DNA of 64,000 bases from Candidatus Falkowbacteria bacterium (lineage in GTDB: Bacteria; Patescibacteriota; Patescibacteriia; Patescibacteriales; UBA12465). The stretch lies in contig JAAZJO010000001.1 of NCBI GenBank assembly GCA_012800315.1, positions 773-64,772 on the forward strand, read 5' to 3'. Position 1 is the first letter of the stretch. Each line of letters opens with the position of its first letter. Of the stretch, positions 1-64,000 are shown piece after piece. Position numbers and translations under genes: made by a program. Below the pieces are notes generated by a model. That model ran no database searches, was not told the origin of the DNA, and saw only the letters and a program-made list of their open reading frames with translations.

Positions 1-313
1 TATATTTATCCCGAAAAGAATCTAGGGCACTTTGTTTAGAAATATAATTTACCGCCCTAACCTTATCGGAGGCAGCAATTCTATCTTTTAACACCATGAT
101 TTCCGTATCAGAAGCATCTGCTTTTAAATAAAGGCTAATATTTATTTTCTCCTTAATCGCAGTGACAGCATCATCACTAATTACGCGCACAATCAAAAGT
201 GTATTAATGGAAAATAAGGAAATTACTAAAATCGTCACCGTCACCAAGGTTAACCAAATATTGCGAGTGATGTCTTGAAAACTAAATTTAATAATATGAA
301 ATAAAGATTGCAT
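1..313 (-). CDS. ftsX: Cell division permease FtsX, N-terminal part (3' end lies beyond window start)
   Basis: Not in the ORF track because it runs off the window. My translation from the ATG at 313 is MQSLFHIIKFSFQDITRNIWLTLVTVTILVISLFSINTLLIVRVISDDAVTAIKEKINISLYLKADASDTEIMVLKDRIAASDKVRAVNYISKQSALDSF..., i.e. an N-terminal TM helix followed by an FtsX-type extracytoplasmic domain. It starts 2 nt after the ftsE stop, the canonical ftsE-ftsX order. Confidence 0.75.
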   Translation of the reverse strand, partial: MQSLFHIIKFSFQDITRNIWLTLVTVTILVISLFSINTLLIVRVISDDAVTAIKEKINISLYLKADASDTEIMVLKDRIAASDKVRAVNYISKQSALDSFRDKY

Positions 314-315
314 AT

Positions 316-993
316 TTATAAAATATATTTACCGCGCGCTTGATCGCTAATAATTTGCCCTTGCTCCATTGTAACGACCCGACGATTCAAACGATTAACG
401 ATTTCTTTATTATGAGTAACTAAAATAATTGTCGTGCCAAATTTATTAATACGTAAAAGTAAATCAATAATTTCACTAGCGTTTATCGCATCAAGATTGC
501 CAGTTGGTTCATCCGCTAATAATATTTTTGGTTGATGAACTAGGGCCCGAGCAATCGCTGCTCTTTGTTTTTCCCCGCCAGAAACTTCATTAGGATAACG
601 ATCCTTCTTATCTTCTAAGCCAACAATCCGCATAACACTAGGCACAATTTTCTTAATCTTGGCAGCTGAACTACCAGATACTTCCAAAGCGAAAGAAACG
701 TTTTCTTCTAAAGTTTTTTTAGGTAAAAGTTTAAAATCCTGAAAAATAACTCCAATTTGACGACGTAAATATGGGACTTCTCGTCTAGAAATTTTAGTAA
801 TATCCCAATCACCAACAATTACTTGACCATCATCTGCTCTTTCTTCACCAATCAAAATTCTTATTAACGTAGTTTTACCGGCCCCTGATTGACCCACAAT
901 AGAAACAAACTCTCCCGGCTCTATTCGTAAATTAACCGAACGTAAAATTTTTGTTTTATTATATGATTTAGAAACGTTATGAAGAGTGATCAT
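316..993 (-). CDS. ftsE: Cell division ATP-binding protein FtsE (ABC ATPase)
   Basis: Walker A GQSGAGKTT, ABC signature VSGGEKQR, Walker B ILLADEPTGNLD. Length is 225 aa, and an ftsX-like gene lies immediately downstream. Confidence 0.9.
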   Translation of the reverse strand: MITLHNVSKSYNKTKILRSVNLRIEPGEFVSIVGQSGAGKTTLIRILIGEERADDGQVIVGDWDITKISRREVPYLRRQIGVIFQDFKLLPKKTLEENVSFALEVSGSSAAKIKKIVPSVMRIVGLEDKKDRYPNEVSGGEKQRAAIARALVHQPKILLADEPTGNLDAINASEIIDLLLRINKFGTTIILVTHNKEIVNRLNRRVVTMEQGQIISDQARGKYIL

Positions 994-5376: not shown

Positions 5377-7176
5377 TTATAACTTATTATCTGAAATAAT
5401 CATCTCCACTCCTTCCGGCAAATCTCTTTCTTGGTTACTCCTTTTAGCTACTTGATTCTGATCATTATGCTTAGTTATTGTTTCAATCTTTTTTATTTCT
5501 CGTCCCCGAAAATCAACCGGCTTCGCTTTAGCCAAATCTGCTAAAGATAGGGTTGGGGTTTCATTAACTAAAACCGTTTCTTCTTTTAAGCGTTTTTTTT
5601 CTATCTCTTTTTCTATTTTTCTTTTTTCCACTTCCAATCTTTTTTCTTCCTTTTTGCGACTCAAACATTCTTTACAATATACCGGCCTAATACCATCGGG
5701 AATAAAAACTGTAGTTGTCATTTGGCCACAACTAGAACAAATCGCTTCATGCCCCGAGGTACTAACAATTCGGGGATGATTAGCTGATTGATTAGTTAAT
5801 TTAGCTTCTGTCTTTACTTTCTCCGAGCGATTTTCTGTTTTAGACACTGAGTGAACTGAATTAGTGGCTAAAACTTTCTTGGCTGGCCCAATATCCTCAT
5901 TATAACTTTCATGCCAACGCATAATTTTTTCTTCAACACTCGCTCTTTCTGAAGCATACTTCTCTCTAGAATAAGCGATTACCTTAGCTGTATTATTAGT
6001 TTTTTCACTTGCCGGCAACGGCGGTAGTCCGCGAGCAGAAAATGGCGCTGAAGCAACTCCATCAATCATTAGTTTTAAATACATTTCATACTTCGGCAAA
6101 TTAACTAAATCTTCCTGGGTAAAAGTTGGCAAAAACTCTTTCTCTAATTCTTCAGCATCAGCCGCTCCCACCCGATAAGCCACTATTGTTCCCACATTAC
6201 CAAAAACTGCTGGTTTAACTTTTTCGCTTAGTTGTTCAATGTATTGGTGAGCTAAAACAAGATTTAAACGATATTTTCTTGCTTCTGATAAAATATTAGC
6301 AAAAGAATCAGTGGAAAAGTTTTGAAATTCATCAATATACAAATAAAAATCACGACGCTCTTTTTCTGGAATATCTACCCGGCTCATCGCTGCTAACTGA
6401 ATTTTAGTAATCATCATCGCTCCGAGTAAAGCTGAATTATCTTCTCCAATACGTCCTTTTGATAAATTCATAATTAAAATCTTGCCACTATCCATTATTT
6501 CACGGATATTGAATGATGACCTTACTTGACCAACAATATTTCTCATTAAAGAGTTAGATAAAAATTGACCAACTTTATTTTGGATAGGTGAAACCGCTTC
6601 CGAGGCAAATTTATCAGCATAGCTAGAAAATTCCTTCTCCCAAAAAGCCTTAACTACCGGATCTTTAATATTAGCAACTACTCTCTTACGATAATTCTTA
6701 TCTGATAACATTCTAATAATACCCATCAAAGTAGAACCCGGAAAATCTAAAATTGCTAAAATAGCATTGCGTAAAATATATTCCAAACGAGGCCCCCAGG
6801 AATCAGCCCAGAGTTTTTGGAAAACGCCGATCAAGCCAGAAGCGACTAAATGACGTAAATGTGGCTCAACTTGCTCAACCACATTAAAAGCAATCGGAAA
6901 ATCAATGTCTGCCGGATTAAAATAAACGACATCTTGGATACGATTATCTGGAATATAATCAATTATTTTTTCTGCTAAATCACCATGTGGATCAACCACT
7001 GCCACCCCAAAGCCAGCACGAATATCATCAACAATCATGTTTTCCAAAACAGTTGACTTACCCATACCAGTTTTCCCAATCAAATACATGTGGCGACGCC
7101 GGTCATCAGTTTTTATGCCGAATTTTTTAAATTCGTTACGATAAGTTGTTTGGGCAAAAACCGTAATATCCTTCAT
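5377..7176 (-). CDS. VirD4/TraG/TraD-like (type IV coupling-protein-like) P-loop ATPase, soluble, with K/E-rich linker and C-terminal CxxC-x17-CxxC zinc ribbon
   Basis: Walker A GKTGMGKST; Walker B-like FYLYIDEFQNF; RKYRLNLVLAHQYIEQL resembles the TraG/VirD4 C-terminal core. No N-terminal TM helices. C-terminal CSSCGQMTTTVFIPDGIRPVYCKEC has exactly 17 residues between the two CxxC pairs. Confidence 0.55.
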   Translation of the reverse strand: MKDITVFAQTTYRNEFKKFGIKTDDRRRHMYLIGKTGMGKSTVLENMIVDDIRAGFGVAVVDPHGDLAEKIIDYIPDNRIQDVVYFNPADIDFPIAFNVVEQVEPHLRHLVASGLIGVFQKLWADSWGPRLEYILRNAILAILDFPGSTLMGIIRMLSDKNYRKRVVANIKDPVVKAFWEKEFSSYADKFASEAVSPIQNKVGQFLSNSLMRNIVGQVRSSFNIREIMDSGKILIMNLSKGRIGEDNSALLGAMMITKIQLAAMSRVDIPEKERRDFYLYIDEFQNFSTDSFANILSEARKYRLNLVLAHQYIEQLSEKVKPAVFGNVGTIVAYRVGAADAEELEKEFLPTFTQEDLVNLPKYEMYLKLMIDGVASAPFSARGLPPLPASEKTNNTAKVIAYSREKYASERASVEEKIMRWHESYNEDIGPAKKVLATNSVHSVSKTENRSEKVKTEAKLTNQSANHPRIVSTSGHEAICSSCGQMTTTVFIPDGIRPVYCKECLSRKKEEKRLEVEKRKIEKEIEKKRLKEETVLVNETPTLSLADLAKAKPVDFRGREIKKIETITKHNDQNQVAKRSNQERDLPEGVEMIISDNKL

Positions 7177-61450: not shown

Positions 61451-64000
61451 ATGAGTGATTTGACTTCAATTGAAAACTTAATTAATCCGTCCGACGATGA
61501 AGAAAGTGTGGTTGGACAATTTGCTAAAAAGCAAAAAGAAATCAAATCAAAAGAAATAGAAAAGAAAACCGAAAGAGAGGCGGCGGTCTTAGGTTTGCCT
61601 TATGTTAATCTCTTTGGCTTTCCTATTAGTCCGGAAGCTTTGGTTTTAATTCAAGAAAGCAGAGCGCAAGAAATAGGTGCGGTCTGTTTTTATTATGATG
61701 GGAAAAATCTTCGTCTCGGCTGTGTTGAGCCAACACCAGAAGTAAAAGAAGAGCTGCTCCGCCTAAATGAACAATATTTTGTTGATGGCAAACTTTATCT
61801 CATCTCTGAGAATAGTTTAAATTACGCCTTAGAAGCTTATAAAGGTCTCCCTAAAACTAAACGTCAACAAGGCGGTATAGAAATTAGTGAGGAAAGTTTA
61901 GAAAAGTTTAAAAATGATATCGCTAATTATAAAAATTTAAATGATAAAATAAATGACGTTAATATCAGCGATGTTATTACCTTAATTTTAGCAACTGCCC
62001 TAAAAGTTGGAGCTAGTGATATCCATATTGAAGCCGGAGAAACTGGTGTAGCTATTAGAATCAGAATTGATGGTGTTTTACAAGAGGCAGCCACGATTAA
62101 TCGCGATAAATGGAAAAAAATAATTTCCCGCTTAAAAATATTAGCGCGTGTTAAAATTAATATTGAGAATAAGCCACAAGATGGACGCTATACTATTTAT
62201 TTAAAAAATAAAAAAATAGATGTACGTTGTTCGTTTTTACCAACAGCTTTCGGCGAAAGTGTTGTGATGCGTCTACTTGACTCTGAAGAAACTATTTTAG
62301 ATTTAGAGGCCCTAGGTGTTCGTCCAGAAATATTATCAATTTTAAAAAAAGAAATTAGTAAACCAAATGGTTTAATCTTAACTACCGGTCCCACTGGTAG
62401 CGGTAAAACAACCACTCTTTACGCCATTCTTAATAAACTAAATAAACCTGGAACAAAAATTATCACCCTGGAAGATCCGATTGAGTATCAGCTCAAAGGC
62501 GTTAACCAAAGCCAAGTTGATGAAAAGCGCGGCTATACTTTTTCTGATGGCCTGCGTTCTATTTTGCGACAAGATCCGAATGTTGTTATGATTGGAGAAA
62601 TCCGTGATTTAGAGACAGCTGAAATAGCTGTTCAAGCTTCTTTAACTGGTCACCTAGTTTTATCAACTATTCATACTAATGATGCCGCTGGAGTAATTCC
62701 TCGTTTAATTGATATTGGTGTTAAACCCTATTTCTTAGTACCCTCAATTAACGCTGTTATCGGTCAACGTTTGGTACGAAAACTTTGCCCTTATTGTCGC
62801 CGAGAGCATAAGCTTAGCCCTGCTGAAAGCGAACAAGTTAATAAAATATTAGCGGTTATCTCGCCTAAAGCGGAAATAGATATCCCAGCTATTTTACCAA
62901 CTATCTATCAAGCTGGGGAAGGTTGTGAACACTGTAATTTTATTGGCTACCAAGGACGAATTGGCATTATGGAAATTTTCACCATGAATGACAATATCAA
63001 ACAATTAACCATTGATAAAGCACCCTCCTTTAAAATACTTCAACAAGCGATTGAAAACGGCATGATTACCATGCTCCAAGATGGAGTTTTAAAAGCACTT
63101 GATGGTATCACTTCTCTGGACGAAGTTTATCGCGTCATCGGCAATTTTGATTATATCAATGAACTTTATGATATTGTAATCTCCCAAACTATTGGTCGGG
63201 GAATAAAAATTAAAGCAGCCGAATTTGAGCAAGCTAAAAAATTAAGTCAAAATATTTCAGCTATTGCTGAAACCGCCAAAGAAATCCCTAGCTCAGAATT
63301 AATTAACTTAGTGATGTCGCTAGCGATTGTTAATGAGGCGGGTGATATTCATATTGAACCAACCGAAAATGATGTTAGTGTTCGCTTCCGTATTGACGGC
63401 GTTCTTCATGATATTCTAAAACTACCAAAAACTAGCTATCTACCATTATTATCAGAAATAAAAATATTGGCTGGCGCGCCAACTAATATAAGACGGGCTA
63501 CTTTTGATGGGCGCTTCAGCGTTTACTTAGCAGACAAAAAAATTGATTGCCGTATTTCTATTATTGCTGGTGGTTATGGAGAAACAATTGTTATTCGCTT
63601 ACTAACGACCAACGCTATTAATTTAGAAATGGAAAAACTAGGCATCACTTCAGTTGCCCTAGACACCTTACAGCAAGCCATGAAAAAAACTCGTGGCATT
63701 ATTCTCACCACTGGCCCCACTGGTAGCGGTAAAACAACCACTCTTTACGCCATTCTTAATAAACTAAATAAACCAGATACTAAAATAATTACAATTGAAG
63801 ATCCGATTGAATACCAACTCCCTGGTGTAATGCAAACTCAAATTGACGAACAACGCGGCTATACCTTTGCTTCTGCGATGCGTTCTCTTTTACGCCAAAA
63901 CCCAAACATCATGATGATTGGAGAAATCCGTGATACAGAAACAGCTAAAATTGCCATGGAAGCTTCTTTGACTGGTCACTTAGTTTTATCAACTATTCAT
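61451..64000 (+). CDS. Tandem double PilB/GspE-family secretion ATPase (two complete ATPase modules in one ORF; 3' end beyond window)
   Basis: Not in the ORF track because it is open-ended. I translated from the ATG at 61451 and found no stop through 64000 (850 codons). Module 1: T2SE_N-like GLPYVNLFGFPISPEAL, ASDIHIE, Walker A GPTGSGKTTT, ITLEDPIEY, Walker B VVMIGEIRD, His box LTGHLVLSTIHTNDA, tetra-Cys CPYC..CEHC. A linker of about 40 aa follows. Module 2: AGDIHIEP, Walker A GPTGSGKTTT, ITIEDPIEY, IMMIGEIRD, LTGHLVLSTIH... Confidence 0.85.
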   Translation, partial: MSDLTSIENLINPSDDEESVVGQFAKKQKEIKSKEIEKKTEREAAVLGLPYVNLFGFPISPEALVLIQESRAQEIGAVCFYYDGKNLRLGCVEPTPEVKEELLRLNEQYFVDGKLYLISENSLNYALEAYKGLPKTKRQQGGIEISEESLEKFKNDIANYKNLNDKINDVNISDVITLILATALKVGASDIHIEAGETGVAIRIRIDGVLQEAATINRDKWKKIISRLKILARVKINIENKPQDGRYTIYLKNKKIDVRCSFLPTAFGESVVMRLLDSEETILDLEALGVRPEILSILKKEISKPNGLILTTGPTGSGKTTTLYAILNKLNKPGTKIITLEDPIEYQLKGVNQSQVDEKRGYTFSDGLRSILRQDPNVVMIGEIRDLETAEIAVQASLTGHLVLSTIHTNDAAGVIPRLIDIGVKPYFLVPSINAVIGQRLVRKLCPYCRREHKLSPAESEQVNKILAVISPKAEIDIPAILPTIYQAGEGCEHCNFIGYQGRIGIMEIFTMNDNIKQLTIDKAPSFKILQQAIENGMITMLQDGVLKALDGITSLDEVYRVIGNFDYINELYDIVISQTIGRGIKIKAAEFEQAKKLSQNISAIAETAKEIPSSELINLVMSLAIVNEAGDIHIEPTENDVSVRFRIDGVLHDILKLPKTSYLPLLSEIKILAGAPTNIRRATFDGRFSVYLADKKIDCRISIIAGGYGETIVIRLLTTNAINLEMEKLGITSVALDTLQQAMKKTRGIILTTGPTGSGKTTTLYAILNKLNKPDTKIITIEDPIEYQLPGVMQTQIDEQRGYTFASAMRSLLRQNPNIMMIGEIRDTETAKIAMEASLTGHLVLSTIH
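62390..62448 (+). repeat. Exact 59-bp direct repeat, copy 1 (Walker A region of PilB module 1)
   Basis: CCCACTGGTAGCGGTAAAACAACCACTCTTTACGCCATTCTTAATAAACTAAATAAACC is identical to 63716-63774. Confidence 0.9.
63716..63774 (+). repeat. Exact 59-bp direct repeat, copy 2 (Walker A region of PilB module 2)
   Basis: Identical to 62390-62448. The offset of 1326 nt (442 codons) keeps both copies in the same frame. Confidence 0.9.

Follow-up and report, generated by a model that had tools for sequence, protein, structure and literature searches.

One reading frame, two ATPase modules

The 64,000-nucleotide stretch analysed here, called the window throughout, covers positions 773 to 64,772 of contig JAAZJO010000001.1 from a Candidatus Falkowbacteria bacterium, and it ends within a gene that encodes two PilB/GspE-type filament ATPase modules in a single polypeptide. 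The gene forms one open frame of 850 codons whose translation contains no stop, and it breaks off at the window edge precisely on the second His of the module 2 His box (Table 1). A preliminary description, made from the sequence alone, had seen two complete modules fused in one open reading frame (ORF) with an uninterrupted junction. This proved correct: every motif string that it quoted was recovered in the translation, the junction carries neither a stop nor a frameshift, and Pfam found T2SSE twice (E 3.8e-203) and MshEN once in the 850-residue ORF.

The missing end could be supplied from a relative, P0001, a full-length protein of 1003 residues that is 99% identical and is encoded on a collinear 24.6-kb ENA contig (L001). 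By this comparison the complete gene is predicted to have 1003 codons and to end near position 64462. P0001 adds 153 residues beyond the window, namely HANSAAG directly after the His box, a CPHC...CEKC tetra-Cys and the C-terminal helices, and module 2 is therefore complete with all of its catalytic boxes. The two findings that the preliminary description had named beforehand as fatal to its claim, a stop between two separate genes and a degenerate or truncated second module, were both absent.

Modules 1 and 2 (M1 and M2; residues 142-562 and 584-1003) are 50% identical over 422 residues by blastp (E 1e-140). M2 has no N1 domain, and its homology to M1 begins at the N1-N2 linker: from residue 584, the inter-module linker aligns with the M1 linker from residue 142 onwards. 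M1 closes with ..LDEVYRVIG, the last residue of which is 564. Residues 567-580 of the linker that follows are predicted as a helix in an AlphaFold2 monomer model (mean predicted local distance difference test, pLDDT, 84.6; predicted template modelling score, pTM, 0.51), in which the domain folds are good and residues 20-130 form a folded alpha/beta domain. The polypeptide has the layout N1-(N2D-CTD)1-linker-(N2D-CTD)2, where N2D is the N2 domain, CTD the C-terminal ATPase domain and the linker a conserved segment of ~45 residues.

Table 1. Coordinates of the tandem ATPase gene, its parts and other features discussed in the text (positions in the window unless a locus is named; residues of the tandem protein)
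Feature	Position	Residues	Strand	Basis or remark
Tandem PilB/GspE-type ATPase gene	61451..64000		+	Translation, Pfam; truncated by the window
N1 domain (MshEN/T2SSE_N)	61589..61849	47-133	+	PF05157, E 4.9e-06; one per polypeptide
Module 1 (N2 domain and C-terminal ATPase domain)	61874..63136	142-562	+	
Module 1 DGR	62180-62188		+	
Module 1 Walker A, GPTGSGKT	62387-62410	313-320	+	
Module 1 Asp box, LEDPIEY	62468-62488	340-346	+	
Module 1 Walker B, MIGEIRD	62588-62608	380-386	+	
Module 1 His box, TGHLVLSTIH	62645-62674	399-408	+	
Module 1 tetra-Cys, CPYC	62786-62797	from 446	+	
Module 1 tetra-Cys, CEHC	62924-62935	from 492	+	
Inter-module linker	63137..63277	563-609	+	Conserved; motif G-x-x-DY-x3-LY...SQT-x-GRG
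Module 2, first 241 residues (N2 domain and ATPase core to His box)	63278..64000	610-850	+	
Module 2 DGR	63506-63514		+	
Module 2 Walker A, GPTGSGKT	63713-63736	755-762	+	
Module 2 Asp box, IEDPIEY	63794-63814	782-788	+	
Module 2 Walker B, MIGEIRD	63914-63934	822-828	+	
Module 2 His box, TGHLVLSTIH	63971-64000	841-850	+	
Polytopic membrane protein, 325 aa	60462..61439		+	ORF list; stop 11 nt upstream of ATPase start
UvrD/AddA-type helicase-nuclease, 1358 aa	40328-44404		-	Split by intein
T4SS_pilin-domain protein, 2108 aa	25260-31586		-	PF18895, then Ig-like domains
T4SS_pilin-domain protein, 907 aa	31577-34300		-	PF18895, then Ig-like domains
He_PIG protein, 934 aa	22452-25256		-	
TrwB/VirD4-like coupling ATPase	5377-7176		-	With zinc finger
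Canonical pil cluster of a relative	L091 8242-17407			Histidine kinase, response regulator, PilB (584 aa), PilC, two pilin-like ORFs, PilX_N protein, PilM, PilN, two small ORFs

A tetra-Cys subdomain is typical of assembly ATPases, and PilT is not known to have either this subdomain or N1. Both modules of the tandem contain an N2 domain followed by a RecA-like domain with Walker A, Asp, Walker B and His boxes, and both carry the zinc-binding tetra-Cys subdomain (CxxC...CxxC), in M1 as CPYC...CEHC and in M2, as read from P0001, as CPHC...CEKC. A single N1 match (T2SSE_N/MshEN) precedes the core, as in PilB and GspE. Where the protein departs from these families is in holding two full modules per polypeptide instead of one per chain.

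The modules were also scored against NCBIfam models. Taken singly, M1 and M2 scored best with GspE (TIGR02533; 501 and 452 bits, cutoff 630.25) and PilB (TIGR02538; 488 and 411 bits, cutoff 675.65), and stayed under the cutoffs of PilT (TIGR01420; 189 and 161 bits, cutoff 319.1), ComGA (NF041000; 253 and 240 bits, cutoff 300) and TfpB (NF053534; 392 and 356 bits, cutoff 850). Neither module belongs to ComGA or TfpB by these scores, nor to PilT by score and by the tetra-Cys in both. For the 850-residue ORF the scores of the two modules are summed (PilB 762, GspE 812, ComGA 459 and TfpB 623 bits), and the ORF passes the PilB and GspE cutoffs only because two sub-threshold modules add up. Where naming is automated and relies on these cutoffs, the result could therefore be inflated, with PilB or GspE assigned confidently and the tandem architecture concealed.

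In a structural comparison, Foldseek matched one module to Geobacter PilB (5tsh) and Thermus PilF (5oiu) with template modelling (TM) scores of 0.89-0.93. By sequence, the closest solved proteins are Geobacter PilB, Vibrio GspE and M. xanthus PilB, and their alignments with the tandem extend over the length of one module only. A single module of the tandem thus resembles the PilB/GspE proteins of PF00437 (G. metallireducens PilB, 5TSG/5TSH; T. thermophilus PilF, 5OIU/5IT5; Vibrio GspE, 4KSR/4PHT) in its N2D and CTD fold at 40-44% identity, and the restriction of every listed solved match to the length of one module is consistent with single-module chains. Judging from scores and motifs, both modules are of the PilB/GspE type and neither is PilT-like. 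The preliminary description had suggested that the two halves might divide extension-like and retraction-like roles; since both are of the assembly type, with GspE and PilB as best models, scores far below the PilT cutoff and tetra-Cys in each, such a split is not supported.

Conservation, selection and origin of the tandem

We next asked how widely this architecture occurs. A first homology search, drawing on four independent sources of assemblies (NCBI, JGI, ENA and Logan), returned more than 120 clusters of 74-99% identity, all 1003-1004 residues long and on contigs of up to 977 kb, and the tandem is present on the closed 977-kb Falkowbacteria chromosome CP066698.1. A scan of one genome per GTDB species gave 260 matching stretches, of which the best 80 loci were examined; all of these were full length at 65-88% identity. 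Complete versions of the tandem protein occur in 80 or more species genomes, on contigs of up to 1.27 Mb. A survey of relatives for the same fusion, as the preliminary description had advised, found two full modules in 238 of the 375 proteins fetched and three modules in one. In a 50%-identity library, ~14 cluster representatives were collinear tandems at 39-63% identity, and a profile built from these divergent representatives to reach further relatives recovered more tandems, labelled Moranbacteria, Parcubacteria group and Paceibacterota. The tandem form is fixed across a large part of the Patescibacteria, including Falkowbacteria, Moranbacteria and Parcubacteria/Paceibacterota, and the gene encodes a type IV filament ATPase of the PilB/GspE (assembly) type whose internal tandem duplication is ancient and has been conserved by vertical descent.

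That the fusion might instead reflect mis-assembly, collapsed paralogs or two adjacent genes joined by sequencing error is so improbable as to be practically negligible. Some database entries are indeed fragments or chimeric gene calls (P0142, P0138, P0135 and P0143), but the same architecture of 1003-1004 residues recurs in hundreds of independent assemblies from all four sources, including the closed chromosome, the linker is conserved and under purifying selection, and confusion of the modules by an assembler is impossible because they are only 50% identical.

Many of the related loci, among them L005, L006 and L011, bear the title "uncultured Gammaproteobacteria bacterium" (metagenome-assembled genomes from binchicken/SRP co-assemblies). 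These titles clash with the Patescibacteria-type gene content and synteny of the loci and look like a placeholder or a wrong label.

Since the GW2011 genomes of 2015, public databases have contained proteins of this kind with unspecific labels (KKU82539.1, for instance, is entered as "General secretory pathway protein E"), a point that the preliminary description had missed. It had known of no characterisation of the fusion, and in this our literature searches agree: they gave no description of a natural tandem PilB/GspE, the papers covered including those on Candidate Phyla Radiation protein families (PMC6744442), the 2024 PilB review (PMC11656802), the survey of the type IV filament superfamily (PMC6668835) and the work on MshE (PMC4624772). 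The sequences are thus already public, while the architecture itself has gone unremarked and is apparently uncharacterised.

To judge whether both modules appear functional, we examined an alignment of 97 tandems reaching down to 38% identity and a separate set of 12 divergent tandems. Across the 97, the Walker A (G..GK), Asp box (E.P.EY), Walker B (E.R(D)) and His box (TGH...H) residues are invariant in both modules, as are the four Cys of each module (eight in total) and the DGR arginine of the N2 domain, and linker residues G564 and Y573 are at least 90% conserved. The 12 divergent tandems again keep the catalytic motifs in both modules, with two M2 Cys falling to at least 90%, and the Walker A variants of divergent members (GPTSAGKT and GSTGAGKT) retain G-K-T. 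The ratio of nonsynonymous to synonymous substitution rates (dN/dS), computed on six independent close pairs, was 0.008-0.044 for M1, 0.013-0.031 for M2 and 0-0.17 for the linker. Between the window and L001, the 850 shared codons show 58 synonymous and five nonsynonymous changes; in M1 there are 36 synonymous changes and none that is nonsynonymous. Motifs and rates together suggest that both modules are apparently active and under equally strong purifying selection.

These results bear on whether M2 could be a degenerate duplicate that persists as a catalytically dead scaffold or as a regulatory pseudo-ATPase. Its lack of an N1 domain would suit such a role, as would its slightly relaxed constraint at three positions of the N2 domain, all of which M1 and the single-module PilBs conserve. 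The catalytic motifs of M2, however, are invariant across the 97 tandems and its dN/dS equals that of M1, and even the Walker A variants of the divergent members hold G-K-T, which makes degeneration a very improbable explanation.

Differences between the modules are few. Among columns at least 85% conserved in both, 75 hold the same residue and one differs (G367 in M1, A809 in M2). Module-specific columns number ~7 in all, mostly in the N2 domain: M2 is relaxed or replaced at S189, R227, Q243, P264 and D375 and has gained G708, with R227 giving way to E or to a variable residue and Q243 and P264 being relaxed. This pattern points to a mildly specialised N2 domain in M2.

Such specialisation could be invoked for a bifunctional motor, in which one module would serve assembly and the other disassembly or regulation. 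Some ATPases, CpaF among them, carry out both tasks on their own (PMC11656802). Further points in its favour are the replaced R227, the relaxed Q243 and P264 and the gained G708 and A809 of M2, together with the finding that no PilT was seen within 10 kb on either side of the canonical pil cluster of one relative (L091; see below). Against these stand the assignment of both modules to PilB/GspE by score, well under the PilT cutoff, the retention in both of the tetra-Cys subdomain, which PilT is not known to have, and the excess of shared over module-specific columns (75 versus ~7). We consider a bifunctional motor improbable.

The origin of the modules was examined in a neighbour-joining tree of 206 modules over 416 columns, with 37 tandems as representatives. 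The M2 sequences of 34 of the 37 fall into one clade, whose other members are only tandem fragments or chimeric calls, and the M1 sequences interleave with genuine single-module PilBs. Free-standing M2 genes were considered and rejected, the "single-module" sequences of the M2 clade being fragments or chimeric calls of tandem genes. A single origin of all tandems was likewise rejected: the modules of P0129, P0127 and P0136 are mutual sisters with bootstrap values of 100, 97 and 90%, and by this branching the three lineages are independent duplications. In P0129 (995 residues) the modules are 73% identical and in P0127 (994 residues) 55%, in each case being each other's closest relatives, which indicates independent, more recent duplications or gene conversion. 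The third, P0136 (1047 residues; NCBI/Logan, on a 37.7-kb contig), begins with a PilC-like T2SSF cytoplasmic domain that is followed by two T2SSE modules and, as judged from these domain matches, is a fusion of a platform domain to a double motor.

The one protein with three modules, P0271, has 1460 residues and is encoded at positions 10001-14383 of L087, on a single JGI contig. In each of its modules, which share 45-57% identity with one another, the Walker A, Asp, Walker B and His boxes are intact, and the linker motif recurs. No forms other than those with two or three modules were seen, each number being a divisor of six.

Genomic surroundings

The tandem gene stands second in a run of four co-oriented genes, both in the window and in each of the 84 Falkowbacteria-type loci. 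The run begins with the gene for a 325-residue membrane protein and continues, after the ATPase gene, with genes for a protein of the Translin family and a phosphodiesterase of the YfcE type. The membrane protein gave no Pfam or NCBIfam match; it lies upstream in 84 of the 84 loci at 34-78% identity and is fast-evolving. In Moranbacteria-type loci it is absent from the upstream position, which is taken by a DHH protein. We had entertained the Translin, YfcE and membrane-protein genes as a functional operon with the ATPase, and downgraded this idea: argS and uvrA, which flank the run, are equally syntenic, so the four-gene synteny is weak functional evidence, and the neighbours change in Moranbacteria-type genomes.

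Around divergent tandems, the neighbours include genes of replication and recombination. The ruvB gene lies directly downstream in L085, L086, L089 and L092, ruvC and/or yebC occur near the gene in L088, L089, L090 and L092, and dnaA and/or dnaN are found nearby in L088, L089 and L092. Upstream, tsaE and a DHH (NrnA-like) phosphoesterase gene are present in L087 and L092, tsaE only in L090 and the DHH gene only in L085. Such a neighbourhood may preserve the gene order of an ancestor, or it may reflect a functional connection with DNA transactions.

The preliminary description had cast the tandem as the motor for PilD-processed pilins. Its surroundings do not bear this out. The related loci cover 10 kb on either side of the gene, and no pilin, PilC, PilM, PilT or PilD was found in the window or within this distance in the 84 Falkowbacteria-type loci. 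A tblastn search of 1.7 Mb of related loci and of the 64-kb window found no PilB, PilT or PilC homologue beside the tandem gene, and the window contains no class III signal peptide (pilin) motif. By Pfam, none of the 30 further window ORFs is a pil gene; they comprise housekeeping genes, the T4SS_pilin-domain giants and the TrwB-like ATPase. In seven more divergent loci no pil gene adjoins the tandem; only in L085 does a PilC lie 6 kb away. With no adjacent pil gene, the link to a filament machine rests on homology.

In one Moranbacteria-type relative the two kinds of ATPase gene could be compared directly. A 921,850-bp JGI contig carries a canonical pil cluster (Table 1) and, ~100 kb from it, the tandem gene for P0334, which is flanked by tsaE, DHH, ruvB, yebC and ruvC. 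The pilin-like ORFs of the cluster have GFTLIE-type signal peptides, and its single-module PilB is 43-44% identical to either module of the tandem. With the canonical PilB occupying the pil cluster, the tandem in this genome is an additional, orphan motor paralog. In two further genomes, PilC and the tandem gene share a contig.

We therefore weighed a role outside the pilus, in which the protein would serve DNA uptake or another nucleic-acid transaction instead of driving the main pilus. The recombination and replication neighbours of the divergent loci are in line with such a role, as are the Translin-family, YfcE and uvrA neighbours of Falkowbacteria-type loci and the canonical PilB that already serves the pil cluster of one genome. 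Against it, the housekeeping flanks argS and uvrA are syntenic too, and the arrangement may be inherited order in small, dense genomes; immediate neighbours also differ between Falkowbacteria-type and Moranbacteria-type loci, and neither module reaches the ComGA cutoff. On this evidence a non-pilus or DNA-linked role seems unlikely, if considerably less so than a bifunctional motor.

Other features of the window deserve a brief mention. Two giant proteins begin with a T4SS_pilin domain followed by Ig-like domains; the He_PIG protein adjoins them, and the TrwB/VirD4-like coupling ATPase lies further off. By their domain content, these are type IV secretion-like surface components and not parts of a type IV pilus. 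Elsewhere, an intein splits the UvrD/AddA-type helicase-nuclease: a match to Pfam Intein_splicing at residues 277-631 of that protein and a Hint match both lie between its N- and C-terminal UvrD domains.

Proposed assembly of the tandem ATPase and its meaning

PilB, PilT and GspE motors are described as homohexamers with a proposed rotary, C2-symmetric ATP cycle. Set against this background, we read the gene as a conserved tandem PilB-type duplication outside pil clusters, three chains of which would make a six-module ring that acts as a second, orphan motor, and we put the probability of this reading as a whole at about 60%. For the assembly itself, a pseudo-hexameric trimer of tandems, as the preliminary description had proposed, is the most plausible arrangement, and the arithmetic of the two- and three-module forms counts in its favour.

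In detail, three chains would close into one ring in which M1 and M2 alternate, giving an obligate hetero-hexamer with N1 domains numbering three rather than six. The N2 domain of every M2 could lie packed in cis against the M1 ATPase domain to which it is tethered. A C2-symmetric rotary cycle was reportedly proposed for PilB by McCallum et al. in 2017; under such a cycle, opposite positions of the alternating ring would always be one M1 and one M2, so neither module could afford to lose its activity, in keeping with the equal constraint seen on both. Placed on a PilC-type platform as a second motor, the ring would build a type IV filament or a pseudopilus, and this filament may serve DNA uptake rather than being the main pilus.

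Several observations weigh against this reading. Either module alone falls under the NCBIfam PilB and GspE equivalog cutoffs, and the exact split of the M2 clade has a bootstrap value of 45%. No pil gene is adjacent in any of ~90 loci. Coexistence with a canonical PilB is shown for a single genome, which is of the Moranbacteria type and so lies outside the Falkowbacteria-type lineage of the window. The monomer model, with its pTM of 0.51, gives no inter-module geometry, and the data agree just as well with a stacked double ring.

The stacked arrangement would consist of six chains forming coaxial M1 and M2 rings, only one of which would meet the membrane platform. Tandem P-loop modules do stack in p97, ClpB/Hsp104 and KaiC; the ~45-residue linker with its predicted helix could bridge two tiers, the low pTM leaves the arrangement open, and an M2 without N1 would fit a distal ring that needs no contact with the platform or with a PilM-type partner. 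On the other side, a three-module variant would need three tiers, and the same surface columns are conserved in both modules (75 identical). No PilT/VirB11-family ATPase is known to stack, although no search was aimed directly at this; among the PDB matches listed, the descriptions mention neither tandem chains nor stacked rings. All in all, we regard a stacked double ring as possible but rather unlikely.

Returning to the trimer of tandems, its relation to known motors can be stated more closely. Like PilB and GspE, the protein has in each module the four catalytic boxes, the N2D arginines and the tetra-Cys, and it has one N1/MshEN domain per chain. It differs from them in its two, rarely three, modules per chain, in having one N1 for two modules, in the linker motif, in a gene that lies outside pil/gsp operons, and in modules that singly stay under the equivalog cutoffs. 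With PilT/PilU (TIGR01420) it shares the superfamily core, a hexameric motor of N2D and CTD, and it differs by its N1 and tetra-Cys, which PilT is not known to have. A parallel is offered by Acinetobacter baylyi, where PilB and TfpB form a two-motor extension system encoded by separate genes; in the tandem, too, two diverged PilB-type ATPases would cooperate in one organism, but they are fused in one chain and arose by internal duplication. Whether mixed PilB-TfpB hexamers exist has been raised as a question in a review (PMC11656802), and the tandem would put this idea into covalent form. No covalently linked or alternating ring in the PilT/VirB11/GspE family is reported in the searchable papers.

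Beyond this family, duplication and fusion have led to pseudo-symmetric or stacked rings with specialised subunits in F1 (alpha3beta3), Rvb1/2, EccC, p97/ClpB/KaiC and dynein. All of these belong to P-loop families that are unrelated or only distantly related to the tandem PilB.

The machine that the ring would drive could be a PilC-type platform, with the tandem as its second motor, or a DNA-uptake pseudopilus, as hinted by the recombination and nuclease neighbours. DNA uptake has been proposed as needed by the patescibacterial lifestyle (PMC6744442), and two further papers state that the episymbiotic lifestyle of these bacteria depends on type IV pili (PMC12206443, PMC9894109). A fuller version of the proposal, which we offer tentatively and hold to be doubtful, is that of a covalent hetero-hexameric motor, made up of three chains with two modules each or of two chains with three, in which the module types would hold fixed alternating positions and divide the roles between them. 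Patescibacteria would use it as a dedicated second motor, such as one for a DNA-uptake pseudopilus tied to the recombination genes that accompany the tandem gene, and it would not drive the main pilus.

The tandem is a widespread, strongly conserved gene of Patescibacteria. The ATP cycle of PilB-family motors is hard to dissect because the six sites are chemically identical. If the proposed assembly is true, a fused two-module PilB would be evolutionary evidence that alternating hetero-rings are viable in this family, and it would allow mutation of sites 1, 3 and 5 while sites 2, 4 and 6 are left as they are. The presence of only three N1 domains in the motor would also bear on the stoichiometry of the contacts that the ATPase makes with its platform and PilM partners.

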